A stretch of 64,000 nucleotides of DNA from the NCBI GenBank assembly GCA_963702035.1, contig OY969700.1, positions 2,301,915 through 2,365,914 of the forward strand, given 5' to 3'. The position numbers and the translations under genes were made by a program. Shown here piece by piece: positions 14,451 through 54,216 of this stretch; position 1 is the first letter of the stretch; each line of letters starts with the position of its first letter. The notes beneath the pieces were generated by a model, which did no database searches, was not told the origin of the DNA, and worked only from the letters and a program-made list of their open reading frames with translations. The stretch comes from an uncultured Solirubrobacterales bacterium. GTDB taxonomy: Bacteria > Actinomycetota > Thermoleophilia > Solirubrobacterales > 70-9.

Positions 14451-16772
14451 GTGCGAATTGCCCTAGTCTCGCCATATTCTTGGAGTTACCAGGGCGGCGT
14501 GAACCGGCACGTCGAGTCGCTCGCCGAGGAGTTTCTCGGTCGCGGTCACCACGTGCGTGTGCTCGCTCCCTTCGATCCTCCCGATCGGCTCAGCCGGGCG
14601 CTTCACCGCGCGCCCGCGGAGGCGCGGGAGATGCCCGACTATCTCGTCCCGATGGGCCGCACGGCTGGGTTCTCCGCCAACGGCGCGGTCTCCAACCTCG
14701 CCCCCTTCCCGGCGGGCGGCGTCATCGCCCCGCGTCGTGAGCTGCGCCAGGGCCGCTACGACGTGGTCCATATCCACGAGCCGATCGTGCCGCTGGTCGG
14801 CTGGAACGCCGCGCTTGGGACGCCCGCGCCCGCGGTCGGGACCTTCCACGCCTACTCGACCAAGGCGTTCCCCAACCACCTCGCTTCGGTGCTGGGGGGA
14901 AGGCGGGTCTTGAACCGGCTCTCGGCCCGGATCGCGGTCTCCGAGGCGGCCGCCTGGACCGGGCGCCGCTGGTTCGGCGGCCACTACGAGGTGATTCCGA
15001 ACGGCGTCGACGTCGACGCCGCGCCGGACGGCCAAAAGCCGCCGAACGATGAGCTGCGGGTGCTGTTCGTCGGCCGCCCCGAGGAGCGCAAGGGCCTGCC
15101 GGTCCTGCTCACCGCTTTCGAAGCGCTGGTCGAGCATGTGCCCAGCCGCCTCACCGTGATCGGGGCCGAGCGCGAGGACGTGCTGCGCTACCTGGCCGAT
15201 CCCGAGACGATGCGCTGGATCGACGTGCGCGGCCGCGTCTCCGGCGAGAGCCTCTGGACGGCGTTGCGCGACGCCGATCTGCTCTGCGCCCCCTCGCTCT
15301 CCGGCGAGAGCTTCGGCATGGTCCTCACCGAGGCCTTCGCCGCGGGCACCCCGGCGATCGCCTCCGCCATCGCCGGCTACAGCGACGTCGTCACCGATGG
15401 CGTCGACGGAGTGCTGGTCCCGCCCGGCGATCCGCAGCGCCTCGCCGAGGAACTGCAGCGCGCCCACCACGAGCCCGAGCGCCTGGCGGCGATGGGCGCG
15501 GCCGCGCGCCAGAGCGCCCAGCGATACGCCTGGCCGCGGGTCGCCGATCGCGTCACCCAGGTCTACGAGCGCGCGCTCGAGGCGCCGCAGCCGTCCGGCG
15601 CGCTCGAGCGCGCCGCGCACTGGGCCGGCATCAGGTCCGCCGACGGCGCTCCCTCGAACCCACCGCGCCGCCTGCCGACGCTCGACCCGCCGCTCGCGCA
15701 GAGCGGCAGTCGCAGGCGGCGCATCGCCCGCCGCGCCGGCCTCGGTATCGCCGGTGTTCTCGGCATCGGCCTCACCGCGCTGGCGGCGCAGAAGATCGGT
15801 GTCGACAACGTGATCGCGAGCATCGTCCGCTCCGACCTCACCTGGGTGCTTGTCGCCTGCGGGTTGATGGCCCTCTCGCTCTTCTTCCGCGCGGCCTCCT
15901 GGTACGCGATCGTGCGCGCGGCCCTGCCCAACCGGCCGGTGCGGCGTCGCGACGTCACCTCGGCGACGATGATCGGCGTGCTGATGTCGGCGACGCTGCC
16001 AGCACGGCTCGGCGAGCCGGCGAGGGCGATGACCCTCGCCCGGCGGATCGGGCGCATGCGCGAGACCTTCCCCGTGCTGCTCGGCACCCTCGTCTCGCAG
16101 ACCGTGCTGAACATCGTCGCGCTGGCCCTGCTGGGCACGATCATCGTCTCCAGTACCGACCTCTTCCACTCCAGCACCGAGAAGCTGTTCGTCTTCAGCT
16201 TCGTACCGCTCGCCCTCCTGCTCGTCGTCCTGATCGCGCCGGTGTTGATGCGCCGCAACGGCAACGGTCGCTTCGCCCGGATCGGCGCCGCGATGCACCG
16301 GGCCATGCTGCAGGTGCGGGCGGGCCTGGCGGTGTTCCGCCAGCCGCGTTACGGCGCCGTCGCCAGCATCGCCCAGCTCGGCGCCTGGGCGATCCAGCTC
16401 GCCGCCTGCTGGGCCCTGCTCGCGGCGCTCGGCCTCAGCGGACATGCCGGCATCGGCGCCGCGGCGGCGGTGCTGTTCGCGGTCAACGTGACCGCGGTCG
16501 TACCGGCGACCCCGTCGAATATCGGCGTCTTCCAGCTCGCCGTGATCAGCGTCCTGCATACCGGCTGGGGGATCAGCACCGCCGACGCCCTCGCCTACGG
16601 CGTCATCCTGCAGGCGGTCGAGATCGCCACCGCCGTCGCCCTCGGCCTGCCGGCTCTAGTACGCGAGGGCCTCACCTGGAGCGACCTCCGAGTCCAAGCA
16701 ATCTCCGCCTCTCCGGTCCGCCTCAAGCCGCATCCATCTCAGGACAGCACCCGCGAACGCATCGGAGCTTGA
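14451..16772 (+). CDS. GT4 (GT-B) glycosyltransferase fused to a UPF0104 (lysyl-PG-synthase-like, flippase-like) polytopic membrane domain
   Basis: N-terminus reads MRIALVSPYSWSYQGGVNRHVESLAEEF...PSLSGESFGMVLTEAFAAGTP. The C-terminal ~330 aa are TM-rich. Confidence 0.8.
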   Translation: MRIALVSPYSWSYQGGVNRHVESLAEEFLGRGHHVRVLAPFDPPDRLSRALHRAPAEAREMPDYLVPMGRTAGFSANGAVSNLAPFPAGGVIAPRRELRQGRYDVVHIHEPIVPLVGWNAALGTPAPAVGTFHAYSTKAFPNHLASVLGGRRVLNRLSARIAVSEAAAWTGRRWFGGHYEVIPNGVDVDAAPDGQKPPNDELRVLFVGRPEERKGLPVLLTAFEALVEHVPSRLTVIGAEREDVLRYLADPETMRWIDVRGRVSGESLWTALRDADLLCAPSLSGESFGMVLTEAFAAGTPAIASAIAGYSDVVTDGVDGVLVPPGDPQRLAEELQRAHHEPERLAAMGAAARQSAQRYAWPRVADRVTQVYERALEAPQPSGALERAAHWAGIRSADGAPSNPPRRLPTLDPPLAQSGSRRRRIARRAGLGIAGVLGIGLTALAAQKIGVDNVIASIVRSDLTWVLVACGLMALSLFFRAASWYAIVRAALPNRPVRRRDVTSATMIGVLMSATLPARLGEPARAMTLARRIGRMRETFPVLLGTLVSQTVLNIVALALLGTIIVSSTDLFHSSTEKLFVFSFVPLALLLVVLIAPVLMRRNGNGRFARIGAAMHRAMLQVRAGLAVFRQPRYGAVASIAQLGAWAIQLAACWALLAALGLSGHAGIGAAAAVLFAVNVTAVVPATPSNIGVFQLAVISVLHTGWGISTADALAYGVILQAVEIATAVALGLPALVREGLTWSDLRVQAISASPVRLKPHPSQDSTRERIGA

Positions 16773-16889
16773 GGCCTACCCCCGGTAGGGCTGGAACGTC
16801 TTGTACTTTTTCGGTGTGGGCAATGGGCGCCAGCCCACAAGCGATCCACCGAAACAAGTTAAGTGGAAGGCCTACCGGGGGTAGGCCTC
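16771..16889 (+). repeat. F2 long-hairpin element, copy A
   Basis: GAGGCCTACCCCCGGTAGGGCTGGAACGTCTTGTACTTTTTCGGTG...CACCGAAACAAGTTAAGTGGAAGGCCTACCGGGGGTAGGCCTC. Overlaps stop codons 16770-16772 (+) and 16888-16890 (-). Confidence 0.85.
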
Positions 16890-18135
16890 ACTCCTCCGAG
16901 CTGCGCGGCACCTTGCCCCCTTCGGCACCGGGTTCCTGCGCCGGCCCGCGGGGCGAGGCGATGCCGAGGACCCGCATCGCCTTGAGCCCGAGGCCGAGCT
17001 TCTCGCGGCCCTCGGTGGCGGAGACGTCGTGGCCGCAGAGCTCGCGCACGCGCTCGAGCCGGTAGCGGATCGTGTGGCGGTGGGTGAAGAGCTGTTTGGC
17101 GGTGGCGGCGACGTTGCCGTCATTGCCCAGGTAGGCCTCGACGGTCGCCACGAGCTCCGTCTCGTACTGGTCGTCATAAGCGGCGAGCGGCTCGATCGTC
17201 TCGGCGAAGAAGCGCTGCAGCTCACCCGGGTCCTCGCTCATCGCGGGCAGCAGCAGGCGGTAGGCGCCGGTGTCCTCGAAGGCGAGCAGGGGGCGGTCCT
17301 CGGCTTCGCCGACGTTGACCGCGAGGTGGGCCTCGTTGCCGGCGCGGTAGAGGTCGACGGGATCGGCGACGCGGCGGCTGGCGCCGATCGTCAGATGGAA
17401 GCCGGCGAGGGCGTCCTCGAGCTCGCGTGCGAGACCGGCGGCCGCGCGCTGCAGACGCTCTTCCTCCTCGACGGGGACGATCACGGCGATCTCTGTCGCG
17501 ACCTCGCCCTCGTCGACCGCGGCCAGGGCGCCGGGGGCAAGCGAGCGCAACGTCCGCATCGCGAGGGTCAACACACGCGCCCGCCACTCGCCGGTCTGTG
17601 CGGTTCGCGGCGCGGCACGCAGCACGATCGCCCCGGCTCCCTTCTCCAGATCCGTGCCGAGCTCGCCGGCGCGGGCGACGATGTCGCCGCGGTCGGTCAC
17701 CTTGCGGCCGAAGACCGCGGCGACGAAGACCCCCGCGACCTCCTCGTTCTGCCAGTCGGGTGAGCGGGAGCGCTCCAGCTCCAGGGCCAGCAGGGTCGTC
17801 ACCATCCGCGCGATCGCCGGATCGGGCGGAGCTTTCGCTCTGTAGCGCAGCTCACCGACCGCCGCATCGGCCACCCGCAGCTCCACAGAAGTAACCCGCT
17901 CCCCGCCGGCCAGCAGCTTCTCCTCCTGATCCGGAGACGCGCCGGCCACAGCCAGCACAGCCCCCGATCGCTCGATCAGCGCGACACTCGCATCCAGCAC
18001 CCGAGCCGCCGCCCGCGCCACCGCAGGCAGTCCAGCTCCCGACTCAACAGCTTCGGAGAGCGCCCCCAACGGCTCCTGATCAGCCGCCTTTGCAGGAGTT
18101 TTCGACCCTTTCGCGCTGGTAGACATCCTGGTCAT
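16888..18135 (-). CDS. PucR family transcriptional regulator
   Basis: C-terminal HTH: AATAKQLFTHRHTIRYRLERVRELCGHDV. Confidence 0.8.
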   Translation of the reverse strand: MTRMSTSAKGSKTPAKAADQEPLGALSEAVESGAGLPAVARAAARVLDASVALIERSGAVLAVAGASPDQEEKLLAGGERVTSVELRVADAAVGELRYRAKAPPDPAIARMVTTLLALELERSRSPDWQNEEVAGVFVAAVFGRKVTDRGDIVARAGELGTDLEKGAGAIVLRAAPRTAQTGEWRARVLTLAMRTLRSLAPGALAAVDEGEVATEIAVIVPVEEEERLQRAAAGLARELEDALAGFHLTIGASRRVADPVDLYRAGNEAHLAVNVGEAEDRPLLAFEDTGAYRLLLPAMSEDPGELQRFFAETIEPLAAYDDQYETELVATVEAYLGNDGNVAATAKQLFTHRHTIRYRLERVRELCGHDVSATEGREKLGLGLKAMRVLGIASPRGPAQEPGAEGGKVPRSSEE

Positions 18136-18155: not shown

Positions 18156-18268
18156 AGGGCCTGTCCGGTAGGGCTGGAACGTCTTGTACTTTTTCGGTGT
18201 GGGCCTCGGGCGCCAGCCCAAACGCGACCACCGAAAAAGTTAAGTGGAAGCCCTGCCGGACAGGCCCT
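18156..18268 (+). repeat. F2 long-hairpin element, copy B
   Basis: AGGGCCTGTCCGGTAGGGCTGGAACGTCTTGTACTTTTTCGGTG...AAAAAGTTAAGTGGAAGCCCTGCCGGACAGGCCCT. Abuts the stop codon at 18268-18270 (-). Confidence 0.85.
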
Positions 18269-18525
18269 CAGCCGAGTACTTCGACAATGTCGTTGTAGTA
18301 GTAGACGATTGCAAGCCCCACGACAACGCCCGTAAGGACCAGCGCGACAAGCACGATCACCGAAAGCACTCCCGCCGCGGTCTTCTCCCAGATGCGCCCG
18401 TAGGAGCCGATCGCGGGGACGAAGATCAGGGCGACGAAGGCGACCAGGCTGACCAGCCCGGCTCCGCCGAAGAGCAGGTACTCATTTTCGATCTTCTGCA
18501 GGGCGAGCGGCAGCACGGTCCCCAT
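18268..18525 (-). CDS. Small two-TM membrane protein
   Basis: 85 aa, hydrophobic (LLFGGAGLVSLVAFVALIFVPAIG...). Overlaps the upstream gene end by 44 nt. Confidence 0.5.
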   Translation of the reverse strand: MGTVLPLALQKIENEYLLFGGAGLVSLVAFVALIFVPAIGSYGRIWEKTAAGVLSVIVLVALVLTGVVVGLAIVYYYNDIVEVLG

Positions 18526-20917: not shown

Positions 20918-21029
20918 GGGGACTGTCCCAGTGAGGGTTCTCTCAACTTTTTCTGAAGACAGTTATCTGCTGTCCGTCGGCCCTATCGCAGAAAAAGTAC
21001 AAGCCGTTCACCCCCACTGGGACAGTCCC
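20918..21029 (-). repeat. F2 long-hairpin element, copy F (divergent)
   Basis: The reverse complement reads GGGACTGTCCCAGTGGGGGTGAACGGCTTGTACTTTTTCTG...CAGAAAAAGTTGAGAGAACCCTCACTGGGACAGTCCCC. Spans from the ispE start into the last 7 codons of rsmA. Confidence 0.7.
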
Positions 21030-27709: not shown

Positions 27710-27745
27710 CGCTCCGGAAAAGCACGCCTTTTGCGGCGTTGGGCT

Positions 27746-27864
27746 GAGCGAGGATGGGGCATCCCGGAGTGCGCGGCGTCCTCTTTTCGCCCGGCGGGTC
27801 AGCGAGAGCTGGGCCGCGCTGGTGGCGAAAACCCAGCAAACGGAGGGATGCCCCATCCTCGCTC
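27746..27864 (+). repeat. F1 element, copy d (beta subtype)
   Basis: Perfect 20-bp arms GAGCGAGGATGGGGCATCCC / GGGATGCCCCATCCTCGCTC. Core reads GCGGCGTCCTCTTTTCGCCCGG...GGCGAAAACCCAGCA. Confidence 0.8.
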
Positions 27865-27885
27865 CCCCGGCATTACGATCCTGAG

Positions 27886-34927: not shown

Positions 34928-35642
34928 GCGCACCAGCTACGAGGTCGACGCCCAGGGCGTCGCGCTGCTGCGCCTCGAGCGCCCCGAGGCTCGCAACGCG
35001 ATCGACACGCAGATGCTGGCTGAGATGCTCGAGCACCTGGCGGTCGCCCGCGACGACGACGCGGTGCGCGTCCTCGTGATCAGCTCCTCCGACCAGATGG
35101 GCCTCTCCGCCGGCGCCGACGTCAAGGAGCAGCTCGATGACGAGGGCAAGGTCCGCCGCATGCGGCTCTTCGCCGACCTCTACGACGCGATCGTCGCCTT
35201 CCCCAGGCCGACCGTGGCCGCCTGCCACGGCGACGTGGTCGGCGGCGGAGCGGAGATCGCCATCGCCTGCGACATGCGCGTCGGGGGCGCCAACCTGCGC
35301 ATGCGCTTTCCCGGCGCCGCGCTCGGCGTTCCGGTCGGCCCGGCCCGGCTCGTCACCCTCTGTGGCCTGGCCACGGCCAAGTACCTGCTGCTGACCTCGC
35401 GCACGGTCGGCGCCGACGAGGCGCTGCGCCTCGGCCTCGTCAACCGCGTCGCCCCGGCGGCGGCGACCGAGGAGGCCGCACTGCAAGTCGCCGCCGAGGT
35501 CGCCGGCCACCCACCCGAGGCCGTCGCCCGCCTGAAGCGGATGCTGCACGAGTGGGACGACGTCGAGGGGCGGTCCAAGGTCGAGGGTGTGGGCCAGGTC
35601 GAGTGGGCGCGGACCGGGCCCGGCTTGCCTCAGCCCGACTGA
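34917..35642 (+). CDS. Enoyl-CoA hydratase/isomerase (crotonase) family protein
   Basis: LERPEARNAIDTQM...SAGADVKE...CHGDVVGGGAEIAIACDMRV. Confidence 0.85.
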   Translation: MSAERTSYEVDAQGVALLRLERPEARNAIDTQMLAEMLEHLAVARDDDAVRVLVISSSDQMGLSAGADVKEQLDDEGKVRRMRLFADLYDAIVAFPRPTVAACHGDVVGGGAEIAIACDMRVGGANLRMRFPGAALGVPVGPARLVTLCGLATAKYLLLTSRTVGADEALRLGLVNRVAPAAATEEAALQVAAEVAGHPPEAVARLKRMLHEWDDVEGRSKVEGVGQVEWARTGPGLPQPD

Positions 35643-35649
35643 CGTTGTG

Positions 35650-35764
35650 TAAGCCCATCCGGTAGGGCTTTCACTTAACTTCTTTCGGTGGATCGCCTGT
35701 GGGCTGGCGCCCGCGGCCGGCACCGAAAAAGTACAAGACGTTTCAGCCCTACCGGATGGGCTTA
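35650..35764 (-). repeat. F2 long-hairpin element, copy C
   Basis: TAAGCCCATCCGGTAGGGC...GCCCTACCGGATGGGCTTA. Lies between stop codons 35640-35642 (+) and 35762-35764 (-). Confidence 0.85.
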
Positions 35765-43799: not shown

Positions 43800-46247
43800 G
43801 TGGTTAGCGCCGGTTCCTACATCCTCAGCGCCGTCCTGCTGGCCGTCCTGGTCCTCTCGCTGGGGCTCTCGGCAGTTTGCCTGCGGCGAAGGTTCATGCC
43901 GGAGTGGGAGGGGGCTCCGGCGCACCTGGTCGAGGCGATTCTTGGGGTTGCGCTGCTGATCTGGCTGAGCGAGCTGCTCGGGCTCTTCAGCCTTCTCTAC
44001 GCGGGAACGTTGGTCGCCACGGCTGTGCTGCTGGCGGCAGCGGTTGCTTTTGGCCCGCGGGTCCTGTCGGGGAGAGCGGGTGCCGGGGCTTCGCTGGGTT
44101 TTTCGCCTGAATCGCCGGGGGCCGTCCGAGGTCGCGATCAGGGCGAAAAAGAGGACGCCGCTGTGCCCCGGCACCCCCTCTCCCCGCCACCCGCGGGAGG
44201 AGCGCTTACAGCGGTGGCTGTGGGGGTCGTGGCGCTCGTATTCGCTCACTGGGGGTTCACGGCTAAAGATGCTTTGGGTCGAGGTGTCTTCAATTTCGAT
44301 TCGCTCTGGTACCACCTGCCGTTTGCTGTGGAAATGGCGCATAGCCACTCGGTTACGGGGCTGCACTACACCGAGACGGTCTTCACGAACTGGTTCTACC
44401 CGCAGAACGGGGAGCTTCTGCACGCGGATGGGATCCTGCTCACGGGGCGGGACACGCTCAGCTTGTTCCTCAACTTCGGCTGGCTGGCGATTGCTTTTCT
44501 GGCTGCTTGGTGCATCGGCAGGCCGTATGGACGCGGGCCGCTCACGGTGGTTGCAGCTGCAGTGCTTCTGGAGTGCCACACGCTTGTGGTCCGCGAGCCC
44601 GGAGCTGCGAAGAACGATCTGATGGCGGCAGCTCTGCTGCTTGCGGCGATCGCGATCCTCGTCAATGCCAACTGGGGTGCGCACCTGAGGCCCCGGTGGG
44701 GGTGGCCCGGTCGGACGCGGCGTCCTGTTTTTCGCACGGACCACTCGGCGAGAGAAGCCGACTCCGAGGCGAAAAACCCAGCACCCGACCGGGCCACCCC
44801 CACCGGGGCCTCCTTGGCTGCCGCGGGACTAGCCGTCGGCATCGCCGTCGGGACGAAGTCGACGGCGCTGGCGATGGCCGTTGCGCTCACCGTTGCTGTG
44901 ATCGTGCTGGCGCCATCTGGTCGCCGTTGGGTCGCCGCCGGGTGGTGGTTCGCAGCAGGGGTCGCAGGCGGTGGCTACTGGTACCTCCGCAACCTCGTCA
45001 TCAGCGGCAACCCGCTCCCCCAGTTAGAGCATCTGGGGCCGATCTCATTGCCCCATCCCGAGAGGCTGCAAGAAGGTCGGCCGGACTTCTCGATCGTCCA
45101 CTACGCGACCGACACCGGCGTCTGGAGCAAGTACTTCGAGCCCGGGCTCCACCAGGCCTTCGGCGCCCTCTGGCCCCTGGTCATCGCCGCCGCCATAGCC
45201 GGCGGCCTGACCGCCCTCCTCTGGGGCCGCACGCGCGTCCTGCGCTGGATGGGCGGCGTAGCCCTCTTCGGAATGCTCGCCTACGTCTTCACCCCCCTCA
45301 GCGCCGCAGGAGCCGAGGGCGCCCCCGTCGGCTTCGCAATCAACATCCGCTACGCCATCCCAGCTCTTCTAGCGGGCCTGACCCTGCTGCCCCTTGCTTT
45401 TGGCTCCCGGGCATCCAGCGCCTCGGCCTCGTCTGTGGGTGGCGCGGGGGAGGGGGGGGTTCGGACGGGTGAGTCCGCTAACCCCCCCCTCCCCCGTGAC
45501 AGGATCCGCAGTCAAGAGGCAAGGTCCCTATCCGTCTGGGTGCTGCTTGGAGTGCTGCTCTTGGTCTTGCTCGCGACCGACCGTTCCGACGCCGCTCTTC
45601 GCGACCCCGATCGCCTCTTCGGCTGGCTGATCGCCGCTCTGGCGGTGCTGATCCCGGCTGCGCTGTTATTCGCTCGACATCGCGGCGCGTCGCGGGGCGC
45701 GATCGTGGCCGGATTCGCCGCGCTCGCCATCGCCGTGGTCGCGATCGGCTACCCGGTGCAGCGTGACTACCTGCGCAACCGTTTCCTCAACGCCGATGCC
45801 GAGGCGAGCATCCCCGGGATGCACCTCGACTCGGCCTACCGCTGGGCCCGGGGGGTCAGCGACGCCCGTATCGGCCTCGCCGGCACCACCGCCGGCTTCC
45901 TCGAGTACGGCTTCTACGGCACCGACCTGTCCAACCGCGTGCGCTACCTCGGCGTCGAGGGACCGCACGGCGCCTTCAACGCGATCCCGAGCTGCCCAGA
46001 ATTCCGCGCCGCCGTCAACGCCGCCGATCTCGACTACCTGGTCACCTCTCCCTTCCTCAACTTCATCGAGCCGGGCAAGCCGATCTCCTCTCCGGAGGCG
46101 CGCTGGCTGCGCGGCGAGCCGACGGCGGTCCCGATCCAGCGCAGCGGCCAGGTGACCGTCTGGCGCATCCGCGGCCAGCTCGACCCGTCGGCCTGCGGCC
46201 CCCGCAACGCTCCGCTTCGCAGGATCCCCAAACAACCCGTCAACTGA
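43800..46247 (+). CDS. Large polytopic membrane protein, possibly a GT-C-type glycosyltransferase
   Basis: 815 aa with more than 12 TM segments. Carries in-frame repeat insertions F1-g and R3. Confidence 0.65.
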   Translation: MVSAGSYILSAVLLAVLVLSLGLSAVCLRRRFMPEWEGAPAHLVEAILGVALLIWLSELLGLFSLLYAGTLVATAVLLAAAVAFGPRVLSGRAGAGASLGFSPESPGAVRGRDQGEKEDAAVPRHPLSPPPAGGALTAVAVGVVALVFAHWGFTAKDALGRGVFNFDSLWYHLPFAVEMAHSHSVTGLHYTETVFTNWFYPQNGELLHADGILLTGRDTLSLFLNFGWLAIAFLAAWCIGRPYGRGPLTVVAAAVLLECHTLVVREPGAAKNDLMAAALLLAAIAILVNANWGAHLRPRWGWPGRTRRPVFRTDHSAREADSEAKNPAPDRATPTGASLAAAGLAVGIAVGTKSTALAMAVALTVAVIVLAPSGRRWVAAGWWFAAGVAGGGYWYLRNLVISGNPLPQLEHLGPISLPHPERLQEGRPDFSIVHYATDTGVWSKYFEPGLHQAFGALWPLVIAAAIAGGLTALLWGRTRVLRWMGGVALFGMLAYVFTPLSAAGAEGAPVGFAINIRYAIPALLAGLTLLPLAFGSRASSASASSVGGAGEGGVRTGESANPPLPRDRIRSQEARSLSVWVLLGVLLLVLLATDRSDAALRDPDRLFGWLIAALAVLIPAALLFARHRGASRGAIVAGFAALAIAVVAIGYPVQRDYLRNRFLNADAEASIPGMHLDSAYRWARGVSDARIGLAGTTAGFLEYGFYGTDLSNRVRYLGVEGPHGAFNAIPSCPEFRAAVNAADLDYLVTSPFLNFIEPGKPISSPEARWLRGEPTAVPIQRSGQVTVWRIRGQLDPSACGPRNAPLRRIPKQPVN
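44687..44812 (+). repeat. F1 element, copy g (beta subtype), in frame inside a CDS
   Basis: Perfect 28-bp arms GAGGCCCCGGTGGGGGTGGCCCGGTCGG / CCGACCGGGCCACCCCCACCGGGGCCTC. Core reads GCGGCGTCCTGTTTTTCGCACGG...GGCGAAAAACCCAGCA. Total 126 bp = 42 codons. Confidence 0.85.
45435..45509 (+). repeat. R3 nested-hairpin repeat, copy 1, in frame inside a CDS (75 bp)
   Basis: GTGGGTGGCGCGGGGGAGGGGGGGGTTCGGACGGGTGAGTCCGCTAACCCCCCCCTCCCCCGTGACAGGATCCGC. Sister copy at 54112-54186 on the opposite strand. Confidence 0.8.
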
Positions 46248-46300: not shown

Positions 46301-46642
46301 GTGGGTAACCTCATTGCGATGGACTATCCGCTCGAGAACGCGCTCTTCCAGTGGGAGGAGGGGCTGCGTGCGTTGCGAGCAATCGACGACCCACGCGAGC
46401 GCCGCCAGGCCGATCGCGTCGTCGCCGCCATCCAGGACGAGCTGCGCCGCCGCATCGGTCCCACCTTTTCCGCCGCCGAGCTGGCGGATCTGTACGGGCA
46501 GGGGATCGACTGGTGCCTCCAGATCGCAACCGACACGGCCCGGGGATCGACCGCCGACGGGCAGCTTTTGGCTGACGCCACGTTCTGGCTCTACCTGCGA
46601 GGGGCGACGGACTTCGCAGGCGGAACGCAGCTCGTCACCTAG
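46301..46642 (+). CDS. Hypothetical protein
   Basis: 113-aa ORF with a normal GC3 pattern. No family recognised. Confidence 0.5.
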   Translation: MGNLIAMDYPLENALFQWEEGLRALRAIDDPRERRQADRVVAAIQDELRRRIGPTFSAAELADLYGQGIDWCLQIATDTARGSTADGQLLADATFWLYLRGATDFAGGTQLVT

Positions 46643-46755
46643 CGCCTGTCGCGGTAGGGGTGGAACGTCTTGTACTTTTTGGTCGCCGCGATTCGCGGAC
46701 GACCACTCCGGTCACACCCAAAAAGTTAAGTGGAACCCCTGCCGCGACAGGCGCT
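46641..46755 (+). repeat. F2 long-hairpin element, copy D
   Basis: AGCGCCTGTCGCGGTAGGGGTGGAACGTCTTGTACTTTTT...AAAAAGTTAAGTGGAACCCCTGCCGCGACAGGCGCT. Overlaps TAG 46640-46642 (+) and the stop at 46755-46757 (-). Confidence 0.85.
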
Positions 46756-47369
46756 CAGTCGTCTGAATCGTCGTCGCCTGCCGGGGCGCTCTCGCCCGCG
46801 CGGCGGATGACGATCTGATCCGCGTCGATGCGGACCGTGACCTCGCGTTTGCCGGCCCAGTGCTCGGCGTAGACGGGGTTGTCCTTGACGGCGGCGTCGA
46901 GCCAGAGGCCGTAGCCGTCCCGCTCGCCATGGTCGAAGGTCGCCTCGAGGTCTTTGCGCCGGCCACGACCGCCGCGCCGGCCACGTCGCCGCCTGCGCCG
47001 GGGGCGCGCTCCACCGGTCTCTTCGTCGTCGCCATCGTCGTCGGCGGCTTTGGACGCTTTGCGGGCCGGCTTCTCCTCGTCGCCCTCGTCCTCATCCGGC
47101 TCGTCCTCGTCCTCGTCCTCGTCCTCTGCTTCCTCCTCGGCGGCCTCCTCGGCCGTCGCCGCCTCGACCTCGGCCTCGATCTCGTCGCGGAGATCGACCT
47201 CGCCGTTGCCGGCGTCCTCGCCGTCGGGGTTGAGGTCATGCTGTTTGCGGAACTCACGCAGCTCCGAGGCGGAGACTTCGAGCTGGTGGGCGATCCAGGC
47301 GTCGGTGCGACCCTGTCGCACCCAGGCGCGGATCTGGTTGAGCTGTGGCTTCAGTGAGCGTCGTGCCAT
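46755..47369 (-). CDS. Hypothetical protein: N-terminal HTH-like segment, acidic then basic low-complexity linker, conserved C-terminal domain
   Basis: LNQIRAWVRQGRTDAWIAHQLEVSASELREF, then a run of E/D residues, then RRRRRRGRRGGRGRR, then FDHGERDGYGLWLD. Confidence 0.55.
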   Translation of the reverse strand: MARRSLKPQLNQIRAWVRQGRTDAWIAHQLEVSASELREFRKQHDLNPDGEDAGNGEVDLRDEIEAEVEAATAEEAAEEEAEDEDEDEDEPDEDEGDEEKPARKASKAADDDGDDEETGGARPRRRRRRGRRGGRGRRKDLEATFDHGERDGYGLWLDAAVKDNPVYAEHWAGKREVTVRIDADQIVIRRAGESAPAGDDDSDD

Positions 47370-48322: not shown

Positions 48323-48439
48323 AAAAGCCGATCCGGTAGGGCTGAAACGTCTTGTACTTTTTCGGTGCCGGCTGCGGGCGTCAGCCCACAAGCGATCCGC
48401 CGAAAGAAGTTAAGTGAAAGCCCTACCGGATCGGCTTTT
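48323..48439 (+). repeat. F2 long-hairpin element, copy E
   Basis: AAAAGCCGATCCGGTAGGGCTGAAACGTCTTGTACTTTTTCGGTG...GAAAGAAGTTAAGTGAAAGCCCTACCGGATCGGCTTTT. Confidence 0.85.
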
Positions 48440-48468: not shown

Positions 48469-49389
48469 CTACGGAATACGCCGCACGTTCGACAGCAGCG
48501 TCTCCTTGATCTGCGCGATGATCTCCAGCGCCTCGTTCCACTCGCGCTGCCAGACGTTGCGGCCGAAGATCACGCCGCTGCCGCCCCCCTGCATGACCTC
48601 GCGGCAGTGATTGAGGACGACGTCGTCGTCGACCTTGGAGCCGCCGGAGAGAACGACCAGCGCCCGTCCCGCCGATGCGACGCAGTGCTGTATCGCTCCC
48701 GCCTCGTCGATCTCCATCTCGTTGTAAGGGGCGGGGGCGTCCTTGTCCTTCGCCGCGTCGATCTTCGGCATGTTGAGCTTGACCACGTCGGCGCCCATCT
48801 CCATCGCCATCCGCGCCGCGTAGTCGATCGCGTAGAAGGAGCCGGGCCCGCCCTTGGCCTCGATCGCTTCGCCGCGCGGGTAGGACCAGACGATCAGCGG
48901 CATCCCGTAGCGGTCGCAGTCTTCGCGCACGCCGCGCAGCTGGGCCAGGTCCTGGTCCTGGCGCGGCGAGCCGACGTAGAGCGTGTAGCCGACCGCGTCG
49001 GCGCCGAGCCGCACCGCGTCCTCGACGCTGGCGTTGCAGGTCGAGAAGGCCTGCGCGGAGGAGGGGATGTCGGTCTTGCCGTTGACCTTGAGGATCAGCG
49101 GCACCTGGCCGGCGTAGTCGGGGTAGTACTTGCTCGCCATGCCGATCTGGCAGGCGAGGGCCGAGTAGCCGGCCTCGGCGGCGAGCCGGAACTGGTAGTC
49201 GGGATCCTTGGAGGCGGGGTTGGGGAAGAAGTCGCGCGGCCCGTGCTCGATCCCCTGGTCGATCGGCAGCAGCATCAGGGTGCCGTTGCCCGGTCCGAAC
49301 TCGAAGAGCAGGCGGCGCAGGCGGGTCCTTTTGCCGGGCGCCAGCTCGGCCAGAAGCGATTTCTGCTCGGTCAGACTGTTCAACTCCAC
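48469..49389 (-). CDS. Class I fructose-bisphosphate aldolase (DhnA/FbaB type)
   Basis: LLPIDQGIEHGP...LILKVNGKT...ADVVKLNMP. Confidence 0.85.
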   Translation of the reverse strand: MELNSLTEQKSLLAELAPGKRTRLRRLLFEFGPGNGTLMLLPIDQGIEHGPRDFFPNPASKDPDYQFRLAAEAGYSALACQIGMASKYYPDYAGQVPLILKVNGKTDIPSSAQAFSTCNASVEDAVRLGADAVGYTLYVGSPRQDQDLAQLRGVREDCDRYGMPLIVWSYPRGEAIEAKGGPGSFYAIDYAARMAMEMGADVVKLNMPKIDAAKDKDAPAPYNEMEIDEAGAIQHCVASAGRALVVLSGGSKVDDDVVLNHCREVMQGGGSGVIFGRNVWQREWNEALEIIAQIKETLLSNVRRIP

Positions 49390-54015: not shown

Positions 54016-54101
54016 GCCCGGGTGGCGAAACTGGCAAAAGCGGCGCACTTAAAATGCGCTGCCCCTTTGGGGGCTTGCGGGTTCGAGTCCCGCCCCGGGC
54101 A
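54016..54101 (+). tRNA. tRNA-Leu(UAA)
   Basis: GCCCGGG acceptor, anticodon arm GCGCA-CTTAAAA-TGCGC, long variable arm GCCCC-TTT-GGGGC, T arm GCGGG-TTCGAGT-CCCGC. The D stem is weak. Confidence 0.85.
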
Positions 54102-54111
54102 CTCCCGGCGC

Positions 54112-54186
54112 GCGGGTCCTGTCACGGGTGAGGGGGCTGTTAGCGGACTCACCCGTCCGAACACCCCCCTCACCCGTGCCACCCGC
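54112..54186 (-). repeat. R3 nested-hairpin repeat, copy 2, 10 nt after tRNA-Leu
   Basis: The reverse complement aligns with 45435-45509 over 75 bp, with compensatory stem changes. Confidence 0.8.
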
Positions 54187-54216
54187 GCGAGGAGCGTCCC
54201 TTAGGCTCCAGCTTTC

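Follow-up and report, generated by a model that had tools for sequence, protein, structure and literature searches.

A family of long hairpin repeats docked on stop codons in Solirubrobacterales genomes

Introduction

A stretch of 64,000 nt from an uncultured Solirubrobacterales bacterium (GenBank assembly GCA_963702035.1, contig OY969700.1, positions 2,301,915 to 2,365,914 of the forward strand; hereafter the window, numbered from its first letter) carries six copies of a hairpin-forming element of ~115 nt, each lying on or close to a stop codon. What is this element, and what places it at the ends of genes? A first-pass annotation of the window had listed the copies, A-F, and had offered as candidate roles a bidirectional terminator or 3'-end stabilizer, a replicator resembling REPINs (hairpins of paired repetitive extragenic palindromic [REP] units), or a protein-binding RNA.

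Here we analyze the six copies together with their relatives in other genomes and in metagenomes. The hairpin repeat family is real, previously undescribed and widespread. We suggest, with a probability of roughly 0.5, that it is a lineage-specific, non-autonomous palindromic repeat, akin to miniature inverted-repeat transposable elements (MITEs), REPINs, enterobacterial repetitive intergenic consensus (ERIC) sequences and Correia elements, in which an asymmetric core would act as a strand-specific recognition module and which would provide transcripts with a hairpin at their 3' ends.

Results

Six copies of one structured element in the window

With up to three mismatches allowed, the 17-mer AACGTCTTGTACTTTTT matched the six copies and nothing else in the 64-kb window (0.00 matches expected from shuffled sequences), and a motif from the 3' half of the core matched five of the six (0.01 expected). 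All six could be aligned over ~115 nt using MAFFT. A covariance model derived from 100 copies of the family found exactly six, at 101-118 bits, the next, unrelated match scoring 41 bits. The coordinates and strands given in the first-pass annotation are therefore confirmed, against a chance expectation of 0. Each copy folds as a single long hairpin of -60 to -77 kcal/mol (z = -6.6 to -9.4), with the reverse strand folding more weakly by 5-8 kcal/mol. As the window has a G+C content of ~70%, genes were called by G+C content at codon positions (based on the third position, GC3). These independent calls uphold the stop-codon contacts of every copy and the location of copies A, C and D between convergent genes. 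The copies, and the parts of copy A, are as follows.

16771-16889, plus strand: copy A, whole element, 119 nt, between convergent genes for a GT4/LPG-synthase and a PucR-like regulator
16771-16792, plus strand: copy A, lower-stem 5' arm, starting inside the TGA of the left gene (16770-16772)
16793-16811, plus strand: copy A, 5' half of the core, GGAACGTCTTGTACTTTTT, with the purine-rich loop side, two bulged T and the T5 tract
16812-16851, plus strand: copy A, apical hairpin, variable in sequence, its length fixed in the family (mode 39 nt)
16852-16867, plus strand: copy A, 3' half of the core, AAACAAGTTAAGTGGA
16868-16889, plus strand: copy A, lower-stem 3' arm, ending inside the stop of the right gene (TCA, 16888-16890)
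18156-18268, plus strand: copy B, at a tandem junction of minus-strand genes and antisense to both
20918-21029, minus strand: copy F, with a divergent, 'G-type' core (AACGGCTTG / GTTGAGAG), between ksgA and ispE
35650-35764, minus strand: copy C, between convergent genes for an enoyl-CoA hydratase and a polysaccharide deacetylase
46641-46755, plus strand: copy D, between convergent genes, a stop codon overlapping each end
48323-48439, plus strand: copy E, 30 nt beyond the stop (48469-48471) of a DeoC-family aldolase gene on the minus strand

The base of the stem at site A consists of the two genes' native stops, and at site D the stops lie at 46640-46642 and 46755-46757. The left stop at site C ends at 35642, 8 nt before the copy, and the right one lies at 35762-35764; an orthologous copy is present in locus L104. 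Copy B is flanked by the stop (18268-18270) of a conserved 85-residue open reading frame (ORF) and by the Shine-Dalgarno/start region of the PucR-like gene. Copy F runs in the same sense as both neighbours, ksgA (encoding an rRNA adenine dimethylase) and ispE; the ksgA ORF extends into the 5' arm and has its stop codon inside the element, at 21008-21010. Copy E is antisense to its flanking genes and has nearly the same outer stem as copy C.

A widespread family without a counterpart in Rfam

More than 230 copies were gathered from genomes of Solirubrobacterales/Thermoleophilia and from soil metagenomes. A scan for AACGNCTTGTACTTTTT, with one genome per species, returned at least 115 loci, with ~95 true copies among the matches listed; nearly all carriers among these matches were metagenome-assembled genomes of Solirubrobacterales/Thermoleophilia. 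A metagenome scan added at least 120 contigs with at least 127 full copies, which served as a replicate sample, and the covariance model retrieved ~10 further copies lacking the exact 17-mer from 704 kb of collected loci. Viral contigs yielded no true copy, all 54 matches being chance hits in contigs of low G+C content. No Rfam 15 family matched the elements at the gathering threshold, at which only three tRNAs were found in the window, and nothing covered copies A, B or F even at E <= 10. A literature search found no description of such an element.

An invariant, asymmetric core between covarying arms

Each copy is built from three parts, a lower stem of ~20 bp, a near-invariant core of ~35 nt and an apical hairpin; we refer to the strand reading AACGTCTTGTAC as the canonical strand. 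The lower stem is GC-rich and fast-changing, yet its arms are always complementary. Covariation was seen at every one of the 19 lower-stem pairs in an alignment of 100 copies, by RNAalifold as well as by explicit pair counting. Over 35 pairs, 97.5% of the alignment cells are paired, compared to 76% in shuffled alignments and 35-58% in slid registers, and 664 cells show a double change, compared to 175 in shuffles. The closing stem had been described as copy-specific. Instead, it conforms to a loose consensus of the family (RGSCYRT-CCCGG) and belongs to the element, not to the flank of a particular site.

In the inner helix of the core, CUUG.ACUUUUU is paired with AAAAAGU.UAAG, including invariant G.U pairs, and two single U residues (T in the DNA) bulge out of the 5' strand only. 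The core further contains a purine-rich internal loop of seven over four nucleotides, GGAACGU over UGGA. This asymmetric loop, singled out in the first-pass annotation as unnecessary for a plain hairpin, is indeed the most conserved part of the element. The constancy of the 5' half of the core is uninformative, because it was fixed by the search pattern; the 3' half, outside that pattern, is 98-100% invariant in the 100 copies and nearly as conserved in the metagenome copies. Invariant columns are central, with the core halves at alignment columns 39-55 and 106-117, and the ends are the most variable. Rare core variants, in copies found by the model only, change on both strands together: GGAGCGU occurs with CGGA, and the G-type variant has GAACGG with AGA, one G being lost per side.

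The apical hairpin had been called variable, which applies to its sequence, of which there are a few subtypes, but not to its length, which is 38-41 nt in nearly all copies (39±2 nt), the metagenome sample included.

Two other readings of the core were rejected. A K-turn does not fit the internal loop, in which, by inspection, the bulge and the G.A pairs come in the wrong order on either strand, and the AT-rich core shows, by eye, no -35/-10 promoter pair at a conserved spacing.

Copies are docked on stop codons at gene 3' ends

In 107 copies, the stops of neighbouring genes peak sharply 23-26 nt before and 25-27 nt after the core, and these peaks were replicated in the metagenome sample. Smaller peaks, likewise replicated, coincide with the TAG (in GGTAGGG and its complement) and the TAA (in the complement of GTTAAG) of the element itself. 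Terminal positions, including those at which no gene ends, carry a stop triplet at 49% of the left and 40% of the right ends (replicate, 48% and 41%). We read the excess at left ends as largely a mirror image of the right-hand gene's stop, drawn into the stem. At convergent sites, the two stop codons are identical in five of nine pairs, a number too small for any conclusion.

Junctions that bear an element comprise 41 convergent, 51 tandem and seven divergent ones, compared to 74, 359 and 105, respectively, among element-free junctions; copies are thus enriched about three-fold between convergent genes and depleted between divergent ones. As originally proposed, the element is real, structured, present in multiple copies and tied to the 3' ends of genes.

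A bidirectional intrinsic terminator common to convergent genes, one of the roles originally put forward, would be expected to combine such a convergent enrichment with a very stable, GC-rich hairpin at gene ends, as seen here, and with a U-tract. However, a run of at least four T within 12 nt downstream was detected on neither strand in any of 106 copies, and the mean downstream T count (1.9 and 1.8 for the two strands) equals the background (1.8 expected). The internal U5 and A5 tracts come in the wrong order, before and after the apical hairpin, respectively. Moreover, about half of the copies lie in tandem, operon-like junctions, a few nucleotides from the next start codon, and an invariant, asymmetric core of 35 nt would be superfluous in a plain terminator. 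A classical terminator function, as originally proposed, is thus not supported, and we consider it very unlikely.

Of the 51 copies at tandem junctions, 40 have their canonical strand antisense to the genes. This bias persists after collapsing orthologous sites (24 of 31, p = 0.003) and recurs in the metagenome replicate (36 of 55, p = 0.03), such that transcription of the neighbouring genes usually uses the better-folding strand as its template, and the mRNA corresponds to the other strand. Internal stop codons were rejected as its cause, as it persists (34:11) for stops outside the element. Replication direction was rejected as well, as neighbouring copies within 8 kb point in opposite directions in seven cases and in the same direction in three, and the window reads + + - - + +.

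Wobble pairs point to folding of the canonical strand

In the lower stem of the canonical strand, G.U cells outnumber A.C cells 55 to 11 (61 to 14 in the metagenome replicate), counted over cells that are not independent events. At one lower-stem pair, changes appear to run from UA (46 copies) through UG (21) to CG (10), with zero CA. The excess is equal in every gene context (22:5 at convergent, 22:5 at tandem-antisense and 6:0 at tandem-sense sites), and a transcription-coupled mutation bias was therefore rejected as its source. A cruciform is blind to strand; the G.U signal suggests that it is the canonical strand that folds, in single-stranded form.

These observations bear on an alternative, according to which the element is a host-selected, structured RNA module of 3' untranslated regions and intercistronic spacers, which punctuates operons and spreads only by rare duplication or gene conversion. 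By analogy with the RNase III sites of phage T7, the hairpin and its asymmetric loop might serve as a signal for processing or protection, such that cleavage of the larger loop strand would leave a protective hairpin at the end of the upstream cistron; the lower stem of ~20 bp would be long enough for RNase III. The position right after stops, the enrichment at gene 3' ends and the depletion in divergent, promoter-containing junctions would be in line with this idea, as would an invariant core and a fixed apical length maintained over many species. The orientation bias with respect to the upstream gene also fits, the majority orientation placing the 7-nt loop side 3' in the mRNA. However, the strand favoured by the wobble pairs and the purine-rich loop is, in most tandem contexts, antisense to the mRNA. 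In addition, site occupancy varies among genomes at 89-93% identity (see below), so that no single site can be indispensable, and the same site holds different subfamilies in different species. We therefore regard a host-selected RNA module as a possible explanation, albeit a tentative one.

Copies are gained, lost and replaced among relatives

Many of the collected loci are syntenic with the window. Among distant relatives (~68-91% DNA identity over aligned stretches, mostly 75-90%), four genomes have a copy at site B and three lack one; the corresponding numbers are four and two for site F, and two and one for site D, the genome with an empty site D being L062, where the convergent genes overlap by 12 nt. 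Orthologous copies at site B belong to different apical subtypes, and those at site F have different core types. Among close relatives (89-93% nucleotide identity), reached through the PucR-like protein, sites are occupied as follows.

Window: site A filled, site B filled, site F filled
L170: site A empty, site B filled, site F empty
L171: site A with outer stem only, site B filled, site F not covered
L174: site A filled, site B empty, site F empty
L172 and L173: sites A, B and F all empty

Site A of L171 (~1373-1400), a relative at 93% nucleotide identity, holds only TGAGGCCTACC-GGG-GGTAGGCCTCA, which corresponds to the outer stem of copy A closed by a 3-nt loop and forms a 10-bp hairpin between two convergent stop codons. 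The 96 missing nucleotides lie between two 8-nt direct repeats, GGCCTACC, which in copy A are found at 16774-16781 (5' arm) and 16869-16876 (3' arm). A deletion is the more parsimonious explanation, as both the window and L174 have a full copy A. It may thus be that some of the short hairpins resembling terminators in these genomes are what is left of the element. At site F, the ksgA ORF enters the 5' arm and uses the element's stop instead of its native last six codons. In L170, an orphan 3' arm identical to that of the window comes after the full copy at site B. The notion of a REPIN-like replicator thus gains support insofar as copies have been gained, lost and replaced between close relatives.

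Orphan 3' arms of a second copy, within ~10-40 nt of a full copy, were seen at several loci (L170 9827-10001; L018 ~7200; L084, right of the copy; L237 ~1108). They look like the footprint of repeated insertion or of unequal exchange at one site.

At L033 (3082-3191), a G-type copy devoid of TAG/TAA triplets is read through in frame. Two ABC-ATPase domains are joined there in an ORF of 587 residues, 38 of them encoded by the element, a possible gene fusion through the element. In the window, a 245-nt gap contains a small hairpin, GCCCGC-CGAA-GCGGGC, preceded by AAAAA (8675-8705); the relatives L113 and L170 have an extra hydrolase gene and a copy of the element in this place.

A REP/RAYT system or an attC-like site is unlikely to account for the family

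REPs and REPINs are high-copy extragenic palindromes located downstream of genes, between unidirectional and convergent ORFs; they can form long hairpins, persist vertically within a lineage and occur as several families per genome (PMC3733652, PMC3337134). The present family shares the multi-copy, extragenic placement at 3' ends between unidirectional or convergent genes (PMC3733652) as well as the long-hairpin form. We considered mobilization by a REP-associated tyrosine transposase (RAYT; an IS200/IS605-like Y1 transposase), the gene for which is present in single copy and flanked by the repeats in REP systems. The strand-specific folded form of the family, with its extrahelical T, is reminiscent of the single-stranded DNA hairpins that HUH enzymes recognize.

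The link had been suggested by the GTAG in the stem, taken as a conserved REP-like tag. REP tags (GTAG or CGTC) are unpaired and located at one end of a 5-13 bp stem (PMC3733652). In the hairpin family, GTAG is base-paired within the lower stem and present in only ~70% of the copies. Its T and A form pairs 30/136 and 31/135 of the 19-bp helix in the alignment of 100 copies, the pairs of this segment covary freely (UA 46, UG 21, AU 11, CG 10, GC 7), and it is absent from whole subfamilies, including G-type copies without any GTAG. With GTAG paired and not conserved, the REP/RAYT link fails. Moreover, a REP unit measures 20-40 nt and has an unpaired GTAG/CGTC tag and conserved ends, whereas the hairpin family has a length of ~115 nt, an invariant centre and variable ends. 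A REPIN consists of two inverted REP units around a less conserved spacer, a layout that the family does not follow, given that its conserved columns are central and its arms are not independent small palindromes. Orientation is unlinked to the direction of replication, as detailed above, and no Y1 (RAYT) gene was found among the ~27 proteins scanned, a minority of the genes in the collected loci. A RAYT-mobilized REP family is thus unlikely.

Folding of the template strand of upstream ORFs is also reminiscent of attC sites, which prompts the question whether a tyrosine recombinase could act on a folded single strand of the element and handle neighbouring genes as cassettes. In attC sites, an unpaired spacer separates a first stem from a second one that bears extrahelical bases on one of its strands, and a variable terminal structure follows. 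These sites measure 57-141 nt and lie just after an ORF; their function depends on one folded strand bearing the extrahelical bases, the unpaired spacer and the variable terminal structure. The hairpin family resembles attC sites, including the Vibrio cholerae repeats, in this formal layout, in size, in its position after or overlapping the upstream stop and in the folding strand, and its core sequence GTTAAGT fits GTTRRRY. However, the GTTRRRY-like motif lies inside the element instead of at an end and lacks its partner box, RYYYAAC, so that no R-box pair marks the ends, and no integrase was seen. Copies do not form cassette arrays and are scattered in both orientations among core housekeeping genes (for example, ksgA-ispE). 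An attC-like site is therefore extremely improbable.

Candidate partners next to copies

At L101 (4097-5754), two inverted copies flank an IS1380-like insertion sequence (DDE_Tnp_1_4, E = 2.5e-75). Its DDE transposase was rejected as a partner, as its own 18-nt inverted repeats are unrelated to the element, and the arrangement was taken as a coincidence. A 142-residue protein with GRP (AT-hook-like) repeats, encoded between two inverted copies (L105 2554-2982, minus strand, and L066) and helix-turn-helix-like in its C-terminal part by eye, was likewise rejected, being present at one orthologous site only. At L070 (5560-8000), the 5' half of a copy abuts an island of lower G+C content (56-64%) with a gene for a DUF6731 protein and other, uncharacterized ORFs, the far end of which lies beyond the locus.

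Neighbouring genes and further hairpin families in the window

The neighbours of the window copies are ordinary genes, encoding a GT4/LPG-synthase fusion, a PucR-like regulator, a VTT/PAP2 protein, IspE, KsgA, an enoyl-CoA hydratase, a polysaccharide deacetylase, an SNase-like nuclease and a DeoC-family aldolase. Three proteins of the window were also looked up by exact sequence, without a match, probably owing to the choice of start codons.

The window also holds two further families of long hairpins. Members of the second family (~115-130 nt) lie at 27738-27868 (plus strand), 44066-44192 (minus strand) and 44691-44804 (plus strand), with others in different species (L001, L013, L028). They are similarly built, with a GC-rich lower stem, an internal loop and an inner stem of UUUUUCGC/GCGAAAAA, and share the core GGCGTCCTSTTTTTCGC ... 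GGCGAAAAACCCAGC; the apex of the 44066 copy bears a CUCGGACGGCC-like motif. The third family (~70 nt; GGGTGGCRCGGG.GAGGGGGG.GTTCGGACGGGTGAGTCCGCTAAC...CCCGTGACAGG) is present at 45434-45503 (plus strand) and 54118-54187 (minus strand). Its first copy lies inside an accepted ORF, which may therefore be a false call, and its second copy follows the tRNA-Leu gene (54016-54102) after 16 nt. Between 43340 and 45050 (~1.7 kb), there is almost no confident gene call, several hairpins of the second and third families stand close together, and the region may be a cluster or graveyard of repeats.

Discussion

Based on these results, we favour, at about even odds, a non-autonomous palindromic repeat of this lineage. 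The core, folded in one strand, would be recognized by a host trans-acting protein, which would copy, convert or remove the element. New copies would persist only where they do little harm, that is, right after genes or within their last codons. With the lower stem starting on the stop codon, the element's own TAG or TAA could end an ORF running into it, and transcripts crossing the element would gain a hairpin of about -70 kcal/mol without a U-tract directly after the stop codon. Such a hairpin would be expected to act as a barrier to 3' exonucleases or as a processing site rather than as a classical terminator. In the most economical reading, RNA-level effects at gene ends are a consequence or an exaptation of the protein-recognized core.

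The folded strand is the canonical one, and the transcribed strand is mostly its complement, a conflict that the favoured reading does not reconcile. Our best guess is that a DNA-level substrate drives the spread and that hosts select against the better-folding RNA inside operons; if so, the DNA form spreads and the RNA form is filtered by the host. A 3'-end stabilizer or a protein-binding RNA, as suggested in the first-pass annotation, are possible roles, complicated by the better-folding strand being antisense.

Several observations weigh against a mobile repeat with a dedicated recognition protein. No mobilizing enzyme was found in the genome fragments to which the search was confined, namely the 64-kb window and loci of 1-21 kb. 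Interrupted copies, among ~250 copies, showed no recurrent cargo, nor did ~130 metagenome copies point to an autonomous partner by such cargo; the IS1380-like enzyme at L101 is the only transposase found adjoining copies. No filled/empty comparison yielded a clean target-site duplication, and the element seems to have taken the place of host sequence at sites B and F rather than having simply been added. The loss at site A can be explained by slippage between the direct repeats, without a dedicated enzyme. Template-switch correction of quasipalindromes could keep the arms complementary, and arm complementarity could thus stem from this process rather than from selection; if it does so, the asymmetries of the core persist in spite of it, an argument for their being functional. 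In addition, the core is kept across species with flanking genes only 68-90% identical in DNA, to which a host function fits at least as well as a selfish one, and the orientation bias (40:11; 24:7 after collapsing; 36:19 in the replicate) is not predicted for a purely DNA-level parasite.

The family is set apart from REPINs, MITEs, ERIC and Correia elements by the combination of central conservation, copy-specific paired ends and fixed docking on stop codons. ERIC sequences (IRUs) of enterobacteria and Correia/NEMIS elements of Neisseria are imperfect palindromes of ~100-155 bp that are transcribed in operons or 3' untranslated regions as long RNA hairpins, and for which orientation-dependent effects on the processing and stability of mRNAs have been reported. 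In Correia elements, the terminal inverted repeats are conserved, and a TA duplication and an IHF site are present. The hairpin family has no sequence relationship to either, and differs from Correia elements in its variable ends, the lack of a detectable duplication, the fixed stop-codon positions and the bulged, invariant core. It shares with classical MITEs a small, non-coding, multi-copy nature, inverted-repeat ends, presence/absence polymorphism and orphan fragments. In contrast to these deletion derivatives of DDE insertion sequences, neither a related autonomous insertion sequence nor a target-site duplication was found, and terminal repeats that differ within one genome would not be tolerable for an end-binding transposase.

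Liang, Rudd and Deutscher (2015) reportedly found that translation in Escherichia coli is reduced, by way of stalled ribosomes and trans-translation, when REPs lie within 15 nt of stop codons. The hairpin family resembles these REPs in placing a stable hairpin at or near the stop, so that a terminating ribosome would sit on the stem. It is much longer and unrelated in sequence, and an effect on translation is conceivable only by analogy.

A bolder proposal, which we consider doubtful, is that the invariant, bulged core is the substrate of a hitherto undescribed, strand-specific Solirubrobacterales enzyme acting on nucleic acids that docks the element onto stop codons and thereby makes a 'gene-end cassette'. 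If this were true, the enzyme would be a single-stranded DNA recombinase or transposase or an RNA-binding or RNA-cleaving protein, and the cassette would give housekeeping genes a stop codon, a hairpin and an orientation.

The family would not represent a new category of biology unless its partner enzyme is new, and a motif so compact, invariant and asymmetric should have a protein partner. It provides a natural data set of long palindromes that diverge while staying perfectly paired, and of a repeat that joins the stop-codon context of genes. As its occupancy differs between genomes at ~90% identity, the element lends itself as a marker of genome dynamics in this clade. Among the Actinomycetota of soils, Solirubrobacterales belong to the most abundant, and the carriers found are known only from metagenome-assembled genomes and metagenome contigs. 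If six copies per 64 kb are typical, the element would likely influence the 3' ends of many housekeeping transcripts in these bacteria.

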